A program made the position numbers and the translations under genes. This document shows, piece by piece, positions 5,176-56,200 of a stretch of DNA of 64,000 nucleotides (position 1 is the first letter of the stretch; every line of letters starts with the position of its first letter). The notes under the pieces were generated by a model. It was not told where the DNA came from. It ran no database searches and saw nothing but the letters and a program-made list of their open reading frames with translations. Origin of the DNA: Candidatus Protochlamydia phocaeensis. Its GTDB lineage: Bacteria; Chlamydiota; Chlamydiia; Chlamydiales; Parachlamydiaceae. The DNA is taken from positions 88,544 to 152,543 of the forward strand of contig NZ_FCNU01000022.1 in assembly GCF_001545115.1 (NCBI RefSeq), read 5' to 3'.

Positions 5176-5994
5176 ATGCCTAATATCCCTTTGCAAAAGA
5201 AAACAGGAATGCCGCTTATTGGACTCGGAACATGGAAATTAAATGGGAAAGAATGTGAACAGGTTCTGCATACGGCTTTAGAATTGGGTTACCGGCATAT
5301 TGACACGGCCGATACCTATCAGAACCATTTGGCAATTGGGCAAGTGATCAAATCCTGCCCCCAGCGCGAGCAGCTTTTCCTTACGACCAAGCTTTCGATA
5401 GATAGCCTGTTGCCTCATCAGGTCGAGGCTGCGGTACCACGCTTTTTAGAAGACTTACATGTCAATTATCTCGATTTGCTTCTCATTCATTGGCCGAATC
5501 CGAACGTCTCTTTAGACCAAACGCTCCTCGCTATGCAGGCCTTTCAGAAGCAAGGCATTGTGCGAAAAATTGGAGTCAGCAATTTTGTCCGCTCGCATTT
5601 CGAATGCTTGGCTTCTTATCGCTTTCCCATTGCAGTCAACCAAATTGAAATGCACCCTTATCTGCAAAGAAGGCCTTTAGTCCATTATTGCCGCCAACAC
5701 GAAATCTCTCTTACCGCTTATCGCCCTTTAGCAAAAGGAGCGTTCGAACAAAATGAAATTTTAAAGGCAATCGGAGCTAAATATAAAAAGACAGCCTCGC
5801 AGGTTGCTCTAAATTGGCTCGTTCAACAGGATATCGTCGTTATCCCCAAAGCGGCTTCAGCTAAGCATCTTAAAGATAATTTAGCTTTATTTGATTTTGA
5901 GTTGTCCGCAGAGGATCGGCAACAAATCGCTCAATTAGAATCCGGTAGGCGATTTTGCAATCCTGCCGATTTACCTGTCTGTGAAGACGAATAA
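5176..5994 (+). CDS. Aldo/keto reductase of the 2,5-diketo-D-gluconate reductase-like AKR family.
   Basis: GLGTWKL…YRHIDTADTYQNH and IHWPNP motifs are present at the expected 272-aa size. It lies 18 nt downstream of the GATase-GXGXG gene. Confidence 0.8.
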   Translation: MPNIPLQKKTGMPLIGLGTWKLNGKECEQVLHTALELGYRHIDTADTYQNHLAIGQVIKSCPQREQLFLTTKLSIDSLLPHQVEAAVPRFLEDLHVNYLDLLLIHWPNPNVSLDQTLLAMQAFQKQGIVRKIGVSNFVRSHFECLASYRFPIAVNQIEMHPYLQRRPLVHYCRQHEISLTAYRPLAKGAFEQNEILKAIGAKYKKTASQVALNWLVQQDIVVIPKAASAKHLKDNLALFDFELSAEDRQQIAQLESGRRFCNPADLPVCEDE

Positions 5995-6092
5995 CCTGAG
6001 TGAAATTAAAAAATACTGAAAAACACTTTTGATACACTTACTGACCCATGACACTTTCCGTTTTCAGGCTGATGAGATCTTTAAAGATAAAT

Positions 6093-6974
6093 TTAAGCTT
6101 TCTTTCCATTGATAGGCTCAAATCTTTGAACGGCCATTGCTCCTAAACTTTCCGAAGCATGGGGATCAGGGGTCGGTTCTACTATAACTAGATACTTTTT
6201 ATCTGGATGCACATCAAGAATAGACGCTTTAAAATGACGGGATTCTTCGGAGCCAATCCCTCCTACATCACGTACGGTTTCTTCACACCGTGTAAACATT
6301 GAAACACGGGAGAACCCAGGCAGAGAATGCGGAATAGGGGTTAAAAATCGCAAGGCTATCATCTCTATTATTCTTGGCAAAGAACTGTTACGCTCTTTTA
6401 TCAATGCCTTTTGCTGCTCAAAAGATAATTTTTGACTATTTTTCATAGCAAAATGGGGCATAGCGACTACATACGTTTCTTGAATAGGGATATCGCAATA
6501 ACCGACATGGATATGAAGATAAGGACCGGATAAAGAAGCTAAATGCTGTGTAGAGATTTGCTCAATACTTCTCAATGTGTTTATTGTAAGACCTTTAGGA
6601 ATCTTTAAAAATGTTATTCCTTTATTTTCCTCTCCTTGAAATACTTTTTGTAGCACAGCTAAGATTTCATCATCTGAAAGCATTTTTTCACATTCTGAAT
6701 CGAAATCACATCCTTTAAATATCTCTTGTCCTTCTAAAGCTTGTATAAATTTTTTCCATTCTTTTGTATCAAAGAAAGTGGCTTTGGCAGCATTTTTATA
6801 AATCCTAGATTTATTTTTATTGAGTGTCTCATTCCATAACTTACATACCAAACGAATAGAGGATAAATCTTTTATGAAAAATTTTTCAAAAACATTGCTT
6901 AGACAATTTTCGTCCAAGTTAATCGTCATGTTTACCAACTGACTAGAAGCGCCTGTTATAGCCGTCATTATCAA
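6093..6974 (-). CDS. Hypothetical protein with an N-terminal F-box-like motif.
   Basis: The N-terminus reads NCLSNVFEKFFIKDLSSIRLVCKLWNETL, an L-x-x-I/V…L-x-x-V-C/S-K-x-W pattern typical of F-box domains. There is no other recognisable domain. Confidence 0.45.
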   Translation of the reverse strand: MIMTAITGASSQLVNMTINLDENCLSNVFEKFFIKDLSSIRLVCKLWNETLNKNKSRIYKNAAKATFFDTKEWKKFIQALEGQEIFKGCDFDSECEKMLSDDEILAVLQKVFQGEENKGITFLKIPKGLTINTLRSIEQISTQHLASLSGPYLHIHVGYCDIPIQETYVVAMPHFAMKNSQKLSFEQQKALIKERNSSLPRIIEMIALRFLTPIPHSLPGFSRVSMFTRCEETVRDVGGIGSEESRHFKASILDVHPDKKYLVIVEPTPDPHASESLGAMAVQRFEPINGKKA

Positions 6975-7217: not shown

Positions 7218-8504
7218 ATGGGAATTAGCGTTGGAACATTTAATATCTTGGATCCAAATTTTGCCGTGAGCCATAATCAGGCAGAAGGATTATCAGCACC
7301 GGGGAAAAGTAATTGGGGTAGCCGGAAAGAGGGAATCGTTCGATTAATTCAAAGTTCCCATTTAGATGTCATTTGTCTGCAAGAAATAAGCGCGCGTTCT
7401 TTGAATGATATGAAGGCGGCGATTGAAGCGCAAGGATATGAAATCGTCCATGTTCCGCATTCAGGCAGAATAGATGGCTTGGCCATCCTATATAAGAAAG
7501 GAAAATTAGAGCCCAAGGATTTTCGCGTTTTATCAAAGCATGGATTAGAGTCTTGCTATGTGGATTTAAAAGATCAGACAACGGGAAAGATGATTCGCGT
7601 TGCAAATTGCCATCTTTTGGGAGGGCCAAAGTCGAATCAAGGAACTGAACAGATAGAAGCACTGGTTAAAGAGGTCGATAAAGAGGCTAATCATCCCATT
7701 GATGCTCGCATTATTGTCGGAGATTTTAATGCGGATGAAAAGCAATTGAACCAGACGAACTCAAAATTTCAAGCTTTAAAACAGGCAAATTACGCATTCG
7801 ATGGCAATTTAAGTCCGACTGAACCGGGTAAAAATCGGCATATTGATTGGATTTGGGTTCGCTCTTCCGCTCAGCTGGCTTCGCTTGCCGTTCCTCATCC
7901 GTCTGTTCCTGTCAGTGACCATCAGCTGCTGGCAACGCAATTGAACTTTCAAGCGACAGTCTTGTCGAATAATCCGCTTCCGTCAACGCTTTCTCAGGTC
8001 ATCTCAGCTCCTTTTCAGCATACACAGCCGAATAGATCGTTTAGGGCTAAAATGATGAGCCATTTCTCCGTAACAGGATGGGATGCTGGCTCAAAGAAAA
8101 GCTTTGCCGAAAAATTAGACGGAATCTTAACCCAATGCGCGAATGCAAATCCTTTTTTGCCGACTATCCGGCAAAAGTTTGCAGAATACGTCGATACGTT
8201 ATTGATGACAGCGAGTGAAAGACAAATGTTGAGAGAGGATTTGGAGAGAGCAATCCAAGCGGCCCAAGAAATGGCAACAAGAGAGAGGGTGCGAGCTCGA
8301 GCGATGTCTGCCTTGCAGACAGGCTCTGTGTCCATTCCCGCTTCCGGCATAGGCTCCCTATCTCAGGAAGATAATAGGACGCCTGCTCCTCTTGCTTCGA
8401 GACCTAGCAATCCTTCAACAGCACCTGTCACGCTTTTTCAGCATGTAAAGGCCTTTTTTAGGGGAATTGCCAGCTTTTTTTCAAGACTCTTTGGCTTTCG
8501 CTAA
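7218..8504 (+). CDS. Endonuclease/exonuclease/phosphatase (EEP) family protein with a Ser/Pro-rich C-terminal extension.
   Basis: DVICLQEI (EEP motif I), GDFNAD and the C-terminal catalytic VPVSDHQLL motif are present. The last ~100 aa are low-complexity S/P/A-rich. An AT-rich promoter region lies upstream (7100-7217). Confidence 0.7.
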   Translation: MGISVGTFNILDPNFAVSHNQAEGLSAPGKSNWGSRKEGIVRLIQSSHLDVICLQEISARSLNDMKAAIEAQGYEIVHVPHSGRIDGLAILYKKGKLEPKDFRVLSKHGLESCYVDLKDQTTGKMIRVANCHLLGGPKSNQGTEQIEALVKEVDKEANHPIDARIIVGDFNADEKQLNQTNSKFQALKQANYAFDGNLSPTEPGKNRHIDWIWVRSSAQLASLAVPHPSVPVSDHQLLATQLNFQATVLSNNPLPSTLSQVISAPFQHTQPNRSFRAKMMSHFSVTGWDAGSKKSFAEKLDGILTQCANANPFLPTIRQKFAEYVDTLLMTASERQMLREDLERAIQAAQEMATRERVRARAMSALQTGSVSIPASGIGSLSQEDNRTPAPLASRPSNPSTAPVTLFQHVKAFFRGIASFFSRLFGFR

Positions 8505-14250: not shown

Positions 14251-16233
14251 TTGATAATGAGAAAATGGTTCCGCTTTCTGACTTGGACTGCAGCGAGTGC
14301 GATTAGCTTAACGGCTGCTTTTGCCGATGGCAAAACAATTGAAGATGATTTAATGGCGAGTGAAATCAAGCATGTTGTTTTCCTTATGCTTGAGAATCGC
14401 TCATTTGATAATGTGCTCGCTTGGCTTTACAACCAAGATAATCCCCCCGCTTATTTCATCCCGAAAGAAAAAAACGAAGCCTACTATGGATTATCAGAAG
14501 ATACGCTGCATCAATACACCAATGTTCTTAAAAGCTCTAATGGCGAAGTTTTATTTAGCTGCCCTCCCATCAAAGGGATTCCTTCTGTCTCTTCCACTCC
14601 TTATCGTAATTCCCCCAAGTTTGATCCACATGAGCCTTTTTTGCATGTCATGAAGCAAATATTTGGCGAAGATCAAAATGGATCGACACCAAATATGACC
14701 GGATTTTTGCAAGATTTTGCTTCCATTTGGTGGGAGCATGAATGGCTCAATCAAAAGGCTAATATTTGTGCGATCATGGAGACGTATACCGATGAGGAAA
14801 TGCCTGTGCTATATAGCTTAGCTAGGCATTATGCTGTTAGCGATCTGTGGTTTTCCTCCGTCCCGACTCAGACAAATCCAAACCGCGCTTTTTCGATTTG
14901 CGGAACATCGGAAGGAGAAGTGATCAACGGACCTTTGGGAAAAAGCTTATTCCGTGCGGATACGATCTGGAATAGGCTCGCAGAAGAATCGCCCGAGACG
15001 ACTTGGATGATTTTCTGGCAATCCGATATCCTTCCAGGCATTATCCGCGGTCCCTATAGTGGAAAAAATACGTTTGCAAGCCTGAGGCGTATTCCCAATT
15101 TAGATCAACATTATCTTAAAATAGACCGCTTTCATGAGATGGCTAGAAACGGCCAGCTGCCTGATTTTAGCTTTATAGAGCCGCAATGGACAGTCTCCAT
15201 TGACTTGGATTCCAAAGTTAAGTTCATGGACGAACTAGGCATTCAATCCCTTCTTATTGGATTGCAGGGGAATGATTTGCATCCGCCGGGAGATGTGCGG
15301 ACAGGAGAAAACCTGCTAGCCAATATTTACACGAGCTTGATTGCCAATCCGGAAGCGTGGAGCAAAACCTTACTGATTATCACTTTTGATGAGCATGGCG
15401 GCCTGTTTGATCACGTTCCGCCTCCTAAAGCGATCCCGCCGGATGAACATGCGCAAAATGGATTTGGCTTTGATCGTTATGGGGTAAGAGTGCCGGCTCT
15501 TTTCATTTCGCCTAAAATCAGCAAAGGAACGGTCATCCGCTCTGAAAATCCAGACGTGCCTTTTGATCATACATCTTTCATTTCAACCCTCTTGCAATGG
15601 AAGGGAATTAATAAAAGAAAATGGAATATGGGCAGACGTGTGGACAATGCGCCCACTTTCGGCAGTGTGATTACCTTAACACAAGCGCGAGAGGATAGCG
15701 CGGTTATCCCCAGTGCGGCTCCGCAGCGCATTGACGATGAGCAACAGGCCATTTCTATGGGAAACAAATTCTATTTGCGCGATAAAGACGGACATTATTT
15801 GATAAAGACGGGAAATGGCTGGCTGAAGCAAGCGCCATTAGGATCAATTGAAGACAGAGTGGCTCTTGAATTTGTTGGCGGAAGCGGCAAGGTGACACAT
15901 GGCTCATTTGTGTTTATTCAGGCCGATGATCCAAAGCTTGGCAATTCAAATCTGCTGGAGGCCTTACTGAGCCATCTCGATTGCGTGTACGATAAAAGAA
16001 AGCAATCAAGCGGGCAATGGTGGACAGTCAAAAGCATGGAGTATCCGTATGTAGGCGCTCCTATTCAGGGCGGCGACCGCATCTATTTGGAGAACCATGT
16101 GTACTTGGATTTATTCCAGTATGTTCCGGCAAGGTTGAGCAAGCGCGCCAATTTTTTTGGAGAATATCTCATGATGAAGCCCCTGTCTGAATCGGACTGG
16201 GATGAGGATTATTGGATTATTGAAAAGGCTTAA
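14251..16233 (+). CDS. Secreted phosphoesterase-family protein (phospholipase C / acid phosphatase, PlcN/AcpA-like) with an extra C-terminal domain.
   Basis: An N-terminal signal peptide is followed by LENRSFDNVL, the phosphoesterase-family motif, and ITFDEHGGLFDHV. The C-terminal ~150 aa is an additional domain with a short internal repeat (DKDGHYLIKTGNGW). Confidence 0.75.
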   Translation: MIMRKWFRFLTWTAASAISLTAAFADGKTIEDDLMASEIKHVVFLMLENRSFDNVLAWLYNQDNPPAYFIPKEKNEAYYGLSEDTLHQYTNVLKSSNGEVLFSCPPIKGIPSVSSTPYRNSPKFDPHEPFLHVMKQIFGEDQNGSTPNMTGFLQDFASIWWEHEWLNQKANICAIMETYTDEEMPVLYSLARHYAVSDLWFSSVPTQTNPNRAFSICGTSEGEVINGPLGKSLFRADTIWNRLAEESPETTWMIFWQSDILPGIIRGPYSGKNTFASLRRIPNLDQHYLKIDRFHEMARNGQLPDFSFIEPQWTVSIDLDSKVKFMDELGIQSLLIGLQGNDLHPPGDVRTGENLLANIYTSLIANPEAWSKTLLIITFDEHGGLFDHVPPPKAIPPDEHAQNGFGFDRYGVRVPALFISPKISKGTVIRSENPDVPFDHTSFISTLLQWKGINKRKWNMGRRVDNAPTFGSVITLTQAREDSAVIPSAAPQRIDDEQQAISMGNKFYLRDKDGHYLIKTGNGWLKQAPLGSIEDRVALEFVGGSGKVTHGSFVFIQADDPKLGNSNLLEALLSHLDCVYDKRKQSSGQWWTVKSMEYPYVGAPIQGGDRIYLENHVYLDLFQYVPARLSKRANFFGEYLMMKPLSESDWDEDYWIIEKA

Positions 16234-19027: not shown

Positions 19028-20398
19028 TTAGGCCAAGCCAACCGCCTTCCAGGCGTTGATAAGATCATAATGCATTTTATAGTCTGTGGGAAAATGCTTA
19101 AGGGCCGTGCAAAGTGTGGCATAGGCAAATTCAGGCATGGTGCAATTCGGCTTGATCAATCCGTCTGTTTTAAGAGTCAAAAACCATAGAAGGCCGGCTT
19201 TTTGCCACGCATAGCCTCCTTGCGCCTGTGCAAATAAACAAAAAGCTTTATTGGGAATACCCGAATTAATGTGAACGCCGCCCTCATCTTCCGTTCCTAA
19301 ATAGCGCTGACTGTAATGATCAGGCTGAGGGTCTTTTCCTAGGATATGAGAATGATAAGCCGTTCCCGGTGCTTTCATAGAACGCAGGGCATAGCTATTT
19401 CCTCCCAATTGAATGGTCCCTTCTCCGATTAACCAGCTGGCTTGATCGACTGTCTGATTATTTTTGTATTGAATGACTAAAGATCCCCAGACATCCGACA
19501 AATGTTCATTTAATGCTCCGGCCTCTCCCTCGTAGTTCAGCTTATCTCCAGTCACCGCATGTCCAAATTCATGGCCAACGATTGAGAGCTCGGTAAAATT
19601 TTTAAAGATATCGTCACCATCGCCATAGACCATCTGCTCGCCGTTCCAAAAGGCGTTGGCATAAAGTTTATCGAAATGGACGGTCGAACGGATTTCAGTC
19701 CCTTTGCCGTCAAAAGAGTTTAAACCATAGGTTTTCATCCAAAATTGATACACATCTTGAGCGGCTTTTAAGGCTTTGCTTGCTGTCGGGCTCATTGAAG
19801 CAGAATGCGAATTTTGATTGGAAGCGACAAACTTGCCTGGCAGTTTTGCTTTATTCTGAGCATTGTAAACGCTAATAAGCGGTTCTTTATTGGGATTGCC
19901 GGCATAAATAGTAAAGGTCTTGTTACTAAGATCTGATTGCGGACGGATCAAATCCTTGTTTAGGCTATCGCTGCGTATGGCGTCAATTTGATGCACTTTC
20001 TCTTGGATATAGGAAGGAATCACGTAGCAACACGTACAAGGATGCCGGCAATCGTCTAGCTTACGGATCTCATGTCCGCCATAAGAAACTGTTTTCTCAA
20101 TGGCATCAACGACGGCTCGTTGCAAAGATTCAAGCGCTTCGATAGCAGAGGGATTTTCGATTTGATCGGTTGATTCAATTTGCTTTAAATAGGAGGCAAT
20201 CGCAACTTCGCAAGAATGTTTTAAGGTTTCATCGTCAGGATCGGCTATTGCTTGCTTGAGCTTTTCCAAGGCAGGTGCCTCTTCCACTTCTTCTGCACTA
20301 GCCGCTTCTGAAGAATCTGAAATAGAAGTTAAATGAGTCAAAGAGGCGTTGGCATGAATGAGGCGAAGATCTTCTGTTCCAACAAATTTCAATGTCAT
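19028..20398 (-). CDS. M4 (thermolysin/protealysin-like) zinc metalloprotease with an N-terminal propeptide.
   Basis: The HEXXH motif VGHEFGHAVT is present, with the third zinc ligand in GALNEHLSDVWG. GGVHINSGIPNKAF is also present. Confidence 0.85.
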   Translation of the reverse strand: MTLKFVGTEDLRLIHANASLTHLTSISDSSEAASAEEVEEAPALEKLKQAIADPDDETLKHSCEVAIASYLKQIESTDQIENPSAIEALESLQRAVVDAIEKTVSYGGHEIRKLDDCRHPCTCCYVIPSYIQEKVHQIDAIRSDSLNKDLIRPQSDLSNKTFTIYAGNPNKEPLISVYNAQNKAKLPGKFVASNQNSHSASMSPTASKALKAAQDVYQFWMKTYGLNSFDGKGTEIRSTVHFDKLYANAFWNGEQMVYGDGDDIFKNFTELSIVGHEFGHAVTGDKLNYEGEAGALNEHLSDVWGSLVIQYKNNQTVDQASWLIGEGTIQLGGNSYALRSMKAPGTAYHSHILGKDPQPDHYSQRYLGTEDEGGVHINSGIPNKAFCLFAQAQGGYAWQKAGLLWFLTLKTDGLIKPNCTMPEFAYATLCTALKHFPTDYKMHYDLINAWKAVGLA

Positions 20399-51106: not shown

Positions 51107-51814
51107 TTAAGAAAACAAATCAGAATGTTTCTCTTTCCAATCTTTAGCTTTTTGTTTAGCCTGATCCAAAATAGCTTGAGGCATGCTATCAAGTGCTTGT
51201 TTCATGGCATTTGCAGCCGGATCATTCATATCAGACGCTATTAAAATCCATTTAATCCCCTCCACCAGATCTTGCTTTGTCATCCCATCAAAACTTTCTC
51301 CGGCTGCCAGCCTCACCCCATAAAAAACCATGCAGTTTGATAAGCCAAGCTCGCATCCTTTTTTCTCCCAGTAAATGGCTTCTTTATCCGATAGTCCAAG
51401 ATTGTGGCATAAATCGCATAGTTTACTAATGGCAGGTTTATAGTCCTGTTTTGCAGCTATTAGGCAAAGCCCTGCTGCAAGGGTCTTTTTGTCTAACCAT
51501 TGCGGGTCATTTATTGCTTTTTCCATATCTAAATCGCCAAAGTGGTCGGCTATCCTATACACGAAAGAGGGACTCGAGTTCGAGTCTGCCAGTTGCATGA
51601 TTAATTTCCTTTGTGCTTTTCTATCACCCATTTTTTCTTCAAATAAAGCGATCCAATCCGCTTCCTTTTTTTCATCAAGTGAAGGAGTTAATTCTTGGGT
51701 ACTTTTTTCAGAATGGTTCATGAGAGACTTGCTATTAGCCATTTCTTCCGACATGGCCAGATTGCAGATTAAAGTAGATGATAATCCAAAAGCAAAGTAG
51801 ATGCTCTTAATCAT
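51107..51814 (-). CDS. Secreted protein with Sel1/TPR-like repeats (tentative).
   Basis: An N-terminal signal peptide is followed by helical A/G/L/W/Y-rich repeats (LAAGLCLIAAKQDY…, GCELGLSNCMVFYGVRLAAG…). Confidence 0.4.
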   Translation of the reverse strand: MIKSIYFAFGLSSTLICNLAMSEEMANSKSLMNHSEKSTQELTPSLDEKKEADWIALFEEKMGDRKAQRKLIMQLADSNSSPSFVYRIADHFGDLDMEKAINDPQWLDKKTLAAGLCLIAAKQDYKPAISKLCDLCHNLGLSDKEAIYWEKKGCELGLSNCMVFYGVRLAAGESFDGMTKQDLVEGIKWILIASDMNDPAANAMKQALDSMPQAILDQAKQKAKDWKEKHSDLFS

Positions 51815-52123
51815 AAATGAATTCCTTAAAAGAATGGATCTTGAATTTAAATTTTAATCTTATAAAAAGACGGAATCCATCTACATTATTAAATAATAAA
51901 TTTAGTTGTAACTAAAATAAATGTTTAACAAATTTAAAAATTTAATGATTACTTGATAGAATAGCGGATTAATATAAGAGGATGAGTTGGATTTAGAAAG
52001 ATTAATCAGTCTTGCAGAGTTAAGACAAAAGAAGCTTCTTATCGCTATTTCAATGAAAACCTGTCCTTATGATACCAATGCTATAAAGAATAATAGCATT
52101 GGTATAAAAAGATAGTAAAAAGC

Positions 52124-52999
52124 TTACAAATAGCTTTGTATTTTTTTGCGGCCTTCGCCTTCTTTTCCTTTCGCTCTCTTTTCAGTGATTTCTTTATTAA
52201 GTTTGCTCAAGAAAATTTCGTAAGTTTCTCTTTGCTTGGACGAAAGCTGATCATTCAGAATGGTCATTGTCACTTCCTGTATGCTAACAAGAAGGTCTGG
52301 ATTGCCTGAAAGCATGCCTGTATTGCGGAGCGAATATATAACCGGAATAGCCTTTTTTGTGTCTTCTGTAAGCGCAAGGCTTTCTTGGAATTGCACATCG
52401 CTTGGATGCTTAGAAGTATATTTAGTAGCACTCTTTCTTTGTTTCAAAGAAACGACAATTAATTTTGTCTTGCTCATATCCAGCTTGATGACGTGCGTCC
52501 GCCCTTTAAACCTGGCTTGAATAGAAAGATTATTAAAGGAAAGATGTTTAATGGAATAAATTTGATTCGGTTTGATAGCCATTGTCAAAGCTTTAAATAA
52601 CGCACGATGGGAGCAAAAGAGACGTTTATCAATAATTTGACGCCATTGACGGCAAACAAGTCTTAGTTGGCAAAGCGATTTTAAGGGAAATGTTTGGAAT
52701 ATATCGGCAAGGACGTCGATGGGCAAATAATGAACGGAACATTCGTCCTGTTTCATGACATGGGCTGTATAGACGTGACAGACTTTATCTTGGACGGTAG
52801 TGCCCTTAAAATCCTCCAGTTCACCATAGTTTATTTCAGTGATCGTAAGATCTTTTTTTTCCTTTACTTCCTTTATTTCTATCTCATTTTTACTGCCAAA
52901 ACAAGAAGACAGGAAACTAGGGAGCCTCATAAATAACCTCTTTATTTTTATACATAATAGAATTAGAGAATTGAATTTTGATTCGACACCAAAAATCAA
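52124..52999 (-). CDS. F-box domain protein.
   Basis: LPIDVLADIFQTFPLKSLCQLRLVCRQWRQIIDKRLF is a textbook F-box (LP-x-[DE]-[IVL]-L-x-x-I-F…L-x-x-V-C-[KR]-x-W). The rest has no known domain. Confidence 0.65.
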   Translation of the reverse strand: MIFGVESKFNSLILLCIKIKRLFMRLPSFLSSCFGSKNEIEIKEVKEKKDLTITEINYGELEDFKGTTVQDKVCHVYTAHVMKQDECSVHYLPIDVLADIFQTFPLKSLCQLRLVCRQWRQIIDKRLFCSHRALFKALTMAIKPNQIYSIKHLSFNNLSIQARFKGRTHVIKLDMSKTKLIVVSLKQRKSATKYTSKHPSDVQFQESLALTEDTKKAIPVIYSLRNTGMLSGNPDLLVSIQEVTMTILNDQLSSKQRETYEIFLSKLNKEITEKRAKGKEGEGRKKIQSYL

Positions 53000-53505
53000 T
53001 TTTTCAACCCTATTGTGGATAAAGTGGAAAAAATCATAATCCTATCGGGCATTAAAGTTAATAAAATTATGGCTAAGAGTTAATTACAGAGCGATTAAAA
53101 TAAAAAAACTGAAAAATAGCCGATAATTTGATTATTAAGAATTCTATGCCCTTCGCTTTATAAGCAGATTTGAACCAATTTAGCAGTTTCTCTCATTTGG
53201 CATATGGCATAGGCGTTTATTTGACAAATTAAAATTTGGACAAGTTGTTTATGCATGAGATCGGCTCATTCATGCTGAAAATTGAAACGAGAAAAAGCGG
53301 AGCATCCTCTATAAAGAACGCAATGATTAACGCAGAGAAAATCATTCTCTTTTTTGTCGTTATTTTTTCACTTTATTGAACTCAAAGCGCGGATTAAAAC
53401 TAAAGGGAACAACTTGGGAAATCAACAGGAAGAAGGGGCGTTTTCGAAGAGAGGTTCTGGTAAGCAACCTCTCTTCATTTCTAAGTTTTGCCGTCTGCTA
53501 TTGCA

Positions 53506-54894
53506 TTACGGAAAAAGTTTTAGAAGGCCAAAAACATCGACATGATGCCATAAGTATTTTTCTATGGGAGAGCGGAGAATATAAGGAAAGCGAATCTCTG
53601 CTTTCTCTTCTCGCTCTATTCCCTTTTCAAAAATCGCCAATTGGTCAATGACTATATCAGTTTTACCGAGCCCATAATTGATTTCTGAATGAAAATGCTT
53701 AGGTCCAATGACCAGATCGTGTTCACCAATTAGTTGAGCCATGATGGAGAAATGGGATTCGGATCGGATTAAACAATTGAATCCTCCATGTGCCATCGAA
53801 AATAAATCTCTAAGCACAGGATTTTCCCCTTCTTTGGGTTCTGTCACTCCAAAAATGATATCTTGCGTATAGCCGGCTTCTCTAATTTTATCCTTCAATT
53901 TTTGCTGGAGAAGAGCGGGTTCTTTATCATCTGTAAAAAGATGAATATAAAGCGGCTGATCTGCATAAATCTGACAAACGTTTAAAAGCTGGGAAATATA
54001 GTACTCATCCGGAGGTACCTTGCAAGGATAGTAGTTTTGAGTGGTGGGGCCATCAAGTCTTGTTGCTCCACGACGCCAATGAACCGCGATAGAGGTGCGA
54101 TCTTTGGGAGGGGTCACTAAGCTTAACGCTTGCTTAGGCTTAATGAGATCTTTGATGAGGTTCTTAAATCCAGCATCCGACCAATCAACTTCCACATAAG
54201 CCCCTCTATAGTTTGGCCCGCGTTCAGAAGGGGACTCTGGGAAGTAGCAAATAGAATGAAGTTCTTTTTCTTCCCGCCTTTCTTCTAGCGATTTCTGGGA
54301 AAGCTGCGTAAAGGGCTCTTCATTGACATGTTTTTCACTCTTTTTAAATTTTGCCACCTCGTATTCTTTTTCTACATCGCTAAGCACAAGCTCATTAGAA
54401 AACTCAAAAGGCTGGAAAGCAAGGGGAATGTTGTATTTATAAGATAACCATTTAGCATGCAGATAAGTAATGAGATTATCTCCAATAAACCCTCCGCTAA
54501 AAGTATAAGAGACCATGCTTTCTGTTGGAGCGGCTTTTTCTACTGAAGAAGGGGTTTCTTCTTTTATTGGAGAAGAGCGTGTTGGAGAAAAAGACGCTAT
54601 TTGCTGGCTAGTTTGTCTGGTTCTCTTGCTTTCCATTGCGCCTCTGACTCTATGGGCTAGATGGCCTATTTCACGGGCTGCGCATTCGATCACAGCAAAC
54701 AACGGGGCAACTACACTTGTTATAGCCAAGCTTAAAAGGATGACTGTTTTTTTAGAAATATTACCGATATGTTTGGCGGTTTTTAATAAAAGATGGTCAC
54801 TGTCCTCAACAATAAATAGTGAATTATCATAGCTGCTTTTTAAATAATCAAAACAAGAAACTGTTGTAGGAATAAATAAACGAAGAGAAATCAT
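53506..54894 (-). CDS. Putative glycosyltransferase (fucosyltransferase GT11/GT23/O-FucT-like fold) with type-II membrane topology.
   Basis: A short cytoplasmic N-terminus and a single TM (VILLSLAITSVVAPLFAVIECAA) precede the catalytic region. FSGGFIGDNLITYLHAKWLSYKY resembles GT11 motif I (FxGGLGNQMFQYA), and a later VHWRRG resembles the nucleotide-sugar-binding H-x-R-R-G-D motif. Confidence 0.4.
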   Translation of the reverse strand: MISLRLFIPTTVSCFDYLKSSYDNSLFIVEDSDHLLLKTAKHIGNISKKTVILLSLAITSVVAPLFAVIECAAREIGHLAHRVRGAMESKRTRQTSQQIASFSPTRSSPIKEETPSSVEKAAPTESMVSYTFSGGFIGDNLITYLHAKWLSYKYNIPLAFQPFEFSNELVLSDVEKEYEVAKFKKSEKHVNEEPFTQLSQKSLEERREEKELHSICYFPESPSERGPNYRGAYVEVDWSDAGFKNLIKDLIKPKQALSLVTPPKDRTSIAVHWRRGATRLDGPTTQNYYPCKVPPDEYYISQLLNVCQIYADQPLYIHLFTDDKEPALLQQKLKDKIREAGYTQDIIFGVTEPKEGENPVLRDLFSMAHGGFNCLIRSESHFSIMAQLIGEHDLVIGPKHFHSEINYGLGKTDIVIDQLAIFEKGIEREEKAEIRFPYILRSPIEKYLWHHVDVFGLLKLFP

Positions 54895-54983
54895 GATTTT
54901 ATGGCCTATTTTATTTATACGGAATGTAGAGTATGCCTGTTAATAATATAATACAATTAAAAATTTATTGTTCTAATTAATGA

Positions 54984-55370
54984 ATGATTGCTTGTTCATT
55001 AATTTATAATTGTTTTCATACTTTATTTTTAAGGACGAGATTTTTTGCAAGGAGAGGTCGTCCATACAGCCTTATCAATAGCTGGACGGGCAAGAAAAGC
55101 GAAATATCTACGATTGAAAAGTTGTCCGAATATAACTATTTAATTGGGGTGAGCAAACAAAATGCTACGCTTGACTCCGAGGAAGCCAGGGTAGAGCAAT
55201 TGACTTTTATGATGGATATCAATAAATGCGTTCAGTTTTTTATTTGGATGGAAGCGGAAGAATGGGCGTTTTCTATTAATAAATTATCTACAGGGATGAA
55301 CGTATCATCTGGCTTCCATATAGCAAAGAGGCGAGAACACAACTTGTACAAGTCGCATTTTTGCGTGTGA
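54984..55370 (+). CDS. Hypothetical small protein (uncertain).
   Basis: It is a 128-aa ORF in a 530-bp gap between two minus-strand genes. I see no motifs. Confidence 0.2.
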   Translation: MIACSLIYNCFHTLFLRTRFFARRGRPYSLINSWTGKKSEISTIEKLSEYNYLIGVSKQNATLDSEEARVEQLTFMMDINKCVQFFIWMEAEEWAFSINKLSTGMNVSSGFHIAKRREHNLYKSHFCV

Positions 55371-55426
55371 GGACAAACCCAAGCAAATTTTTTTACCACG
55401 CGATTAGAAAAGAAAGGCTATGGACT

Positions 55427-56200
55427 CTAATTAGGCGAATATACCGTATTGCCTCGTCCATAACGGAGTAGCTGGACTCCCCATGGCAATTTGAGTCGAA
55501 TCCGTTGGCCATTCTGTCTAATTAGAGTTAATTCCGCAACTCCTCCCTTTTGCCCTTCTACATCAGGGCTATAGGTAAACGAAGGCGCAATGGCTGACAG
55601 TTTAAAAGAATCAGCCACCCCTTCTTCTCCTGAAACGGAACGGAATTTTATTTTTTCACTCTTCTTTAATCCTAAAAGGGTGATTTTGTAACAAGCCGGG
55701 ATGAGGTTGCAAAGCTCAGCTTCAAGAATGACGTTTCCAGCCTCATCTTTGATTTGAATGGGATTGGGAATAAAGGTGATTTCATGTTCAAATGAGCCAT
55801 CCAATATTTCATATCGGCAGTAGATGCGCTCACCCGGTAAAAACCCTCGTGAAGATATGCAAAAGAAGGGACTTCCTTTATCGTCTGGAGGAAGAAAGAT
55901 TCTTCCGTCTTCTTTGATGATAAAGAAGCTTTGCTTGAGGAAATTGTGATTGGGGGGAACTAAGCGCTTTAAAGAAAATTTGATCTTTTTACGAAGAGGA
56001 AAATTTTCAAAATAAAGCAAAGTCTTAGGGTGGAAAGGGTCCAAGCTTGTGCAAGACTGAATAATGGGGTCAGCATGCTGCTTGACCTCCTCGTGTGTTA
56101 AATACACTCTTTGTATGTCTGGTCGGTCCTGTTTCTCCGTGCCGCTTAGTAGATTGTAATAGATAAGCGTCATTAGCACAAAGCGGATAAGCATGCGCAT
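55427..56200 (-). CDS. Hypothetical secreted protein.
   Basis: An N-terminal signal peptide is present (MRMLIRFVLMTLIYYNLLSG). No recognisable domain. Confidence 0.4.
   Translation of the reverse strand: MRMLIRFVLMTLIYYNLLSGTEKQDRPDIQRVYLTHEEVKQHADPIIQSCTSLDPFHPKTLLYFENFPLRKKIKFSLKRLVPPNHNFLKQSFFIIKEDGRIFLPPDDKGSPFFCISSRGFLPGERIYCRYEILDGSFEHEITFIPNPIQIKDEAGNVILEAELCNLIPACYKITLLGLKKSEKIKFRSVSGEEGVADSFKLSAIAPSFTYSPDVEGQKGGVAELTLIRQNGQRIRLKLPWGVQLLRYGRGNTVYSPN

Follow-up and report, generated by a model that had tools for sequence, protein, structure and literature searches.

This locus raises the question of whether a bacterial gene lying at 52124..52999 on the minus strand encodes a genuine F-box protein, and what such a protein could do. 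F-boxes bind Skp1, bringing substrates to Skp1-Cul1-Rbx1 ligases. Bacteria, to our knowledge, have no Skp1, so that a bacterial F-box is meaningful only inside a eukaryotic host. The capture of the host ubiquitin machinery by eukaryote-like effectors has its textbook examples in the F-box proteins of amoeba-associated bacteria. The gene belongs to Candidatus Protochlamydia phocaeensis (family Parachlamydiaceae, phylum Chlamydiota), an amoeba parasite that multiplies in Vermamoeba vermiformis and Acanthamoeba (PMC5583166). The F-box proteins catalogued in Chlamydiae number over 370, nearly all of them in the Parachlamydiaceae (Domman 2014, PMC4209131).

The gene and its reading frame

The open reading frame at 52124..52999 (-) is confirmed by the ORF list and comprises 291 codons, beginning with a TTG at 52999 and ending with the stop at 52124. 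The true start is probably the ATG at 52930 and not the listed TTG, because the Shine-Dalgarno-like sequence AAAGAGG lies 6 nt upstream of this ATG, and because translation from there yields the 268-aa RefSeq protein WP_068469377.1 (100% identity, full coverage), named "F-box protein [Candidatus Protochlamydia phocaeensis]". The reading frame is intact and without introns, and its GC content (0.384) is below the gene mean (0.443, sd 0.031). The features of the gene and its product are as follows.

52124..52930 (-): coding sequence of the F-box protein, 268 aa (ORF list; ATG with AAAGAGG; identity to WP_068469377.1)
52124-52126 (-): stop codon of the F-box gene (ORF list)
52937..52943 (-): Shine-Dalgarno-like AAAGAGG, 6 nt upstream of the ATG (read from the sequence)
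52072..52105 (-): perfect 13-bp stem-loop with an 8-nt loop, beginning 19 nt past the stop codon (RNA fold; inverted repeat I4)
52727..52930 (-): N-terminal leader, residues 1-68 (Pfam at E<=10; hydropathy and composition)
52613..52726 (-): F-box domain, residues 69-106, LPIDVLADIFQTFPLKSLCQLRLVCRQWRQIIDKRLFC, with the conserved Leu69-Pro70 (Pfam, PDB matches, translation)
52127..52612 (-): C-terminal region, residues 107-268, with a Lys-rich tail (Pfam, NCBIfam, PDB, BLASTP to the homologue P0003)

RNA folding of the 77-nt stretch 52050-52126, which contains the 13-bp stem-loop, gives -21.5 kcal/mol (z = -5.3), and none of 200 shuffled sequences is as stable. The stem-loop is not followed by a U-tract and hence is not a canonical intrinsic terminator; it is possibly a transcript-end or stabilizing hairpin. 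AT-rich spacers of 309 and 575 nt lie between the gene and its neighbours, and upstream of it there is a terminator-like hairpin at 53321-53302. These spacers, the upstream hairpin and the 3' stem-loop suggest that the F-box gene probably forms a separate transcription unit. A promoter scan of the region upstream of the gene found promoter-like sites no more commonly than in shuffled sequences.

A eukaryote-type F-box

The earlier note quoted the peptide LPIDVLADIFQTFPLKSLCQLRLVCRQWRQIID, encoded at 52613..52726 (-), as a clear F-box motif, and named a search against the Pfam F-box and F-box-like models as the way to check it. Both models, which belong to the same Pfam clan (CL0271), match significantly and far above their curated cutoffs, bearing out the motif. 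The F-box model (PF00646, gathering cutoff 20.5 bits) gives E 2.6e-11 and 43.4 bits over profile positions 4-41 of 43, and the F-box-like model (PF12937, cutoff 24.3 bits) gives E 2.3e-9 and 37.3 bits.

A search of PDB sequences with a 56-aa segment containing the F-box returned 14 matches, 13 of which are F-box chains. The top match is yeast Dia2 (E 1.7e-4), and the others include FBH1, FBXO44, FBXO6, FBXW11, FBXO22, KDM2A/B, beta-TrCP and the Skp2 F-box (1fs1); several of these chains have been solved in complex with Skp1. The residue alignments follow the canonical pattern LP-[ILV]L-IF-L-L-LVC-WR-I. The core residues present in the protein (L69-P70, I77-F78, L83/L86, L91-V92-C93 and W96, the helix 3 Trp) line up with those in the F-boxes of Dia2, FBH1 and FBXO44. 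The profile score, the Leu-Pro, the hydrophobic core and the Trp thus all place the segment within the F-box domain, and judged by its sequence the F-box of the 268-aa protein is genuine and of eukaryote type. AlphaFold models place helices at residues ~71-80, 83/86-102 and 108-118, although these models are unreliable (mean pLDDT 39 and 35).

A sceptical reading denies that this is a bacterial F-box gene, and ascribes the match to chance or the DNA to a contaminating amoeba. The F-box is short (~40 aa), and the best database matches to it are eukaryotic, as this reading would have it. The E-values against two curated models speak against the chance version, and with no more than 636 segments of 40 aa or longer in the six frames of the window (the whole 64-kb stretch of DNA analysed, which was searched for F-boxes with phmmer against its six-frame translation), the value of 2.6e-11 excludes a chance match. 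The contamination version is contradicted by the position of the gene among typical bacterial genes in a 64-kb window on a 316-kb contig (316,127 bp) of Candidatus Protochlamydia phocaeensis, by its lack of introns, and by its bacterial ribosome-binding site. The results therefore refute this reading, to which we assign practically no weight.

Genomic setting

Apart from the F-box gene and its immediate neighbours, the window has an ordinary bacterial content, including genes for glutamate synthase, ABC transporters, argininosuccinate synthase and lyase, GDP-mannose dehydratase, transketolase, aldo-keto reductases and an SNF2 helicase. It is these ordinary flanking genes, together with the Shine-Dalgarno-like sequence, that exclude host contamination.

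Four minus-strand genes in a row (51107-56200), the second of which is the F-box gene, are below average in GC and match known families weakly or not at all. The four genes of 51107..56200 (-) encode proteins of 235, 268 (the F-box protein), 462 and 257 aa. The 235-aa protein has a sub-threshold match to the Sel1 repeat and a hydrophobic N-terminus. The 462-aa protein is encoded as follows.

53506..54894 (-): 462-aa ORF with a strong hydrophobic segment near the N-terminus (residues ~48-74) and an 'HWRRG' motif

No Pfam or NCBIfam family was found for this protein, and its best PDB match (E = 4) is not meaningful. The 'HWRRG' motif is reminiscent of the HxRRGD motif of fucosyltransferase-like glycosyltransferases, and the product may be a membrane-anchored or inclusion-membrane enzyme. 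Taken together, the four genes could constitute a small islet of lineage-specific host-interaction genes. No direct or inverted repeats suggestive of a mobile element were found flanking the F-box gene.

Immediately upstream of this islet lies a divergent pair of helicase genes, consisting of a 947-aa SNF2-family helicase (43232..46075, -) and a 1496-aa SF1 helicase (46479..50969, +; AAA_11/AAA_12) fused to a C-terminal REase_MTES_1575/DUF559 endonuclease domain. Further away, at 35739..39669 (-), two adjoining argininosuccinate synthase paralogues (420 and 444 aa) precede a Lyase_1 (argininosuccinate lyase-like) gene, and an amino-acid ABC transporter operon adjoins them; tandem duplication of argG is unusual. 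Three other genes encode possible secreted hydrolases: an endonuclease/exonuclease/phosphatase-family protein (7218..8504, +), a phosphoesterase of the phospholipase C / acid phosphatase family (14251..16233, +), and an M4 thermolysin-like metalloprotease (19028..20398, -). These three putative hydrolases may be further candidates for host interaction.

The window also contains a second F-box ORF (6093..6974, -), which matches the Pfam F-box model over residues 19-57 (E 7.5e-5, 22.9 bits, cutoff 20.5). This ORF has Leu-Asp in place of Leu-Pro, and no other gene in the window is as low in GC (0.357; GC3 0.282). The two F-box proteins of the window are alike in the F-box only (35% identity over 31 aa), which indicates that the organism has several unrelated F-box genes.

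The protein outside the F-box

In contrast to the F-box, the remaining regions of the protein have no match in the family databases searched. No Pfam family was found for the isolated N-terminal leader (68 aa) or for the isolated C-terminal region (162 aa), even at E<=10, and no NCBIfam family was found for the whole 268-aa protein, whose matches among PDB sequences are confined to the F-box. LRR, TPR, DUF294, OTU and ankyrin domains are absent according to Pfam, also when the C-terminal region is searched alone at E<=10. The C-terminus (...KIQSYL) has no Cys at position -4, and hence no CaaX motif.

The first 15 residues of the leader, MRLPSFLSSCFGSKN, are rich in Ser (four of them) and devoid of acidic residues, a composition that would suit a type III secretion signal without being diagnostic of one. 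The hydropathy profile of the protein contains no Sec-type signal and no hydrophobic or membrane segment, and the protein is basic overall (44 K+R versus 29 D+E); it is predicted to be soluble. Lacking a hydrophobic segment and a Sec-type signal, it would need a dedicated secretion system for any extracellular role.

AlphaFold2 models from the single sequence (mean pLDDT 39) and from a two-sequence alignment (mean pLDDT 35) are unusable. In these models the C-terminal region has pLDDT <50, and consists of a few beta-strands followed by helices and the Lys-rich tail. This region is presumed to be the substrate-binding part of the protein.

Relatives and distribution

Searched exhaustively with HMMER (E<=1e-3), a set of 1.84 billion representative proteins gave 29 matches, including the F-box protein itself. 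Of these, 26 involve the F-box alone, and the best 10 of the 26 are without exception F-box proteins of eukaryotes, nine of plants (mainly grasses) and one of Caenorhabditis; tandem F-boxes in fused gene models inflate several of the F-box-only scores. A giant protein of 4353 aa (P0013; residues 183-218 in 8 stretches) was rejected as an artefact of weak matches summed over its internal repeat.

The only full-length relative in this search is a 243-aa protein, P0003, which is 31% identical to the F-box protein over 193 aligned columns (residues 66-251, BLASTP E 1e-25). The similarity spans both the F-box and the C-terminal region, the latter being ~30% identical. P0003 scores above the Pfam F-box thresholds, and has Leu-Ile in place of Leu-Pro. 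That it retains the F-box as well as the C-terminal region speaks for selection on the protein as a whole.

P0003 is encoded on metagenome contigs (JGI 3300036768; Logan SRR11727984 and SRR11728137). The ABC-F gene adjoining it is 77% identical to that of a "Parachlamydiaceae bacterium" MAG, 71% to that of P. phocaeensis and 68% to that of P. amoebophila, and on such sequence identities the contigs are assigned to uncultured Parachlamydiaceae. The presence of the homologue on a Parachlamydiaceae contig, beside a gene with this similarity to P. phocaeensis, is a further argument against an amoebal origin of the F-box gene. The two F-box loci are not syntenic. Near the homologue, the contig (L001) also encodes two other eukaryote-like proteins, a Myb/SANT DNA-binding protein and a Sulfotransfer_2 protein (5448..6512 and 14917..15675).

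Other searches added little to this pair. A word-indexed homologue search with the F-box protein recovered only the protein itself, and with the two-sequence alignment P0003 was the sole addition. A scan of genome contigs gave no match for the F-box protein, and none for the neighbouring SNF2 helicase used as a query, and a scan of metagenome contigs with the two-sequence alignment gave no match. Looking up the exact protein sequence among contigs likewise gave nothing. No orthologue is present at detectable similarity in other sequenced Protochlamydia. As far as these searches extend, the two proteins form a two-member F-box protein lineage restricted to the Parachlamydiaceae.

Such a narrow distribution might be expected of a drifting product of gene birth and death with little or no current function, that is, an intact ORF that is unsecreted or unexpressed and has not yet decayed. 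Domman et al. described rapid gain and loss of chlamydial F-box genes by birth-and-death and drift, and suggested non-adaptive processes (PMC4209131), from which it follows that some copies may have little function. The near-orphan status of the present gene and its absence from other sequenced Protochlamydia, its GC content below the gene mean, and the lack of a promoter-like excess upstream would all fit such a history. On the other hand, the ORF is intact, with a length and architecture matching those of P0003, and the occurrence of a 31%-identical homologue in another lineage of Parachlamydiaceae implies that the gene has long been kept. Its Shine-Dalgarno-like sequence is also a good one, and the hairpin at its 3' end is very stable. 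We consider it unlikely that the gene is such a drifting remnant.

Proposed function

Our preferred reading is that the protein acts as an adaptor inside the amoeba. In the first step, the chlamydial type III secretion system would export the F-box protein into the amoebal cytosol. In the second step, the F-box would dock onto host Skp1, and the protein would thereby enter the Skp1-Cul1-Rbx1 (SCF) ubiquitin ligase. In the third step, the lineage-specific C-terminal region of ~160 aa would select the protein to be ubiquitinated, which would belong to the host or possibly to the bacterium or the inclusion. All three steps are inferred, and we regard a type III-translocated adaptor on amoebal Skp1, with a C-terminal domain selecting the target, as a reasonably probable function of the protein. 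The suggestion in the earlier note of an effector candidate in an amoeba-associated bacterium is supported at the level of sequence, the gene being that of a member of the Parachlamydiaceae, where this class of proteins has been described (PMC4209131).

Regarding the first step, representatives of the NEX1, NEX2, PEX1 and PEX2 families have functional type III secretion signals in a heterologous Shigella assay (PMC4209131); having no LRR or TPR repeats, the present protein lies outside these families with tested secretion. Regarding the second step, replacement of the Leu-Pro of Legionella AnkB abolishes both Skp1 binding and function (PMC2790608). The present protein has this Leu-Pro, and the Leu-Ile of P0003 suggests that strict Skp1 docking may not be conserved across the two-member family. 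Regarding the third step, the lack of a recognizable substrate-binding domain counts against the adaptor reading.

The same lack lends itself to another interpretation, in which the translocated protein binds host Skp1 and its short C-terminal region recruits no substrate. Such a protein would be a decoy or inhibitor, dampening SCF activity by titrating Skp1 or by displacing host F-box proteins. The small size of the protein, the absence of LRR, WD40, TPR, ANK or kelch repeats, and a C-terminal region without relatives beyond a single homologue are all in keeping with a decoy. However, many eukaryotic FBXO proteins likewise have unclassified substrate domains. Moreover, the C-terminal 160 aa are ~30% identical to P0003 throughout, while the F-box Leu-Pro is not conserved there, and this conservation of the C-terminal part alongside the loss of Leu-Pro suggests that it is the C-terminal part that carries function. 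A decoy role thus seems rather improbable.

The loss of Leu-Pro in P0003 also makes a Skp1-independent role conceivable. It is doubtful, if conceivable, that the C-terminal ~160 aa constitute a previously unseen substrate-receptor fold for the amoebal SCF, or act independently of Skp1.

The gene is an ordinary one. This class of F-box proteins is already known in the Parachlamydiaceae, and RefSeq already names the present protein as a member; the gene adds one near-orphan example to a large repertoire. Its sole distinctive feature is a C-terminal domain with a single relative, which could point to a new host target once characterized. Alone, the gene changes nothing that is known and makes no open question newly testable.

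Comparison with known systems

The protein would work in the manner of the chlamydial F-box effectors and of AnkB, although its family membership is narrower. The closest known system is the Parachlamydiaceae F-box superfamily (PMC4209131), with which the present protein shares the bacterial family, the amoeba-associated lifestyle, the eukaryote-type F-box (PF00646/PF12937) and the presumed type III secretion and SCF role. It is likewise lineage-specific and patchy in distribution, as birth-and-death predicts. Among the four large gene families described in Parachlamydiaceae, F-boxes are carried by NEX1a and NEX2 (PMC4209131). NEX1a consists of an N-terminal F-box and C-terminal LRRs, and NEX2 of an N-terminal F-box, DUF294/OTU and TPRs, whereas the F-box of the present protein is internal (residues 69-106) and is not accompanied by LRR, TPR, DUF294 or OTU. 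Unlike these expanded families, its C-terminal region has one relative among 1.84 billion representative proteins. By its domain composition, the protein is outside NEX1a and NEX2.

Legionella pneumophila AnkB (Lpg2144/LegAU13), with which the earlier note compared the protein, is translocated by the Dot/Icm system, and its F-box, in particular the Leu-Pro, is required if the vacuole is to be decorated with polyubiquitin and the bacteria are to grow in macrophages and amoebae (PMC2790608). The comparison stands as far as the origin in an amoeba parasite and an F-box with Leu-Pro are concerned, and the likeness ends at the F-box. AnkB combines the F-box with ankyrin repeats and a C-terminal CaaX farnesylation motif, both of which the present protein lacks, and there is no detectable homology beyond the F-box. 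In addition, AnkB is delivered by a type IV system, whereas the present protein would use the chlamydial type III system. From its sequence, the present protein is not of the AnkB type.

Eukaryotic proteins of the FBXO class (yeast Dia2, human FBH1 and FBXO44/FBXO6) provide the best matches of known structure to the F-box sequence. The similarity extends over only ~40 residues, the C-terminal region has no counterpart in these proteins, and the present gene is bacterial. In both cases, however, the F-box is followed by a different, family-specific substrate domain (a presumed one in the present protein), and in eukaryotic terms the protein appears to resemble the heterogeneous FBXO class.
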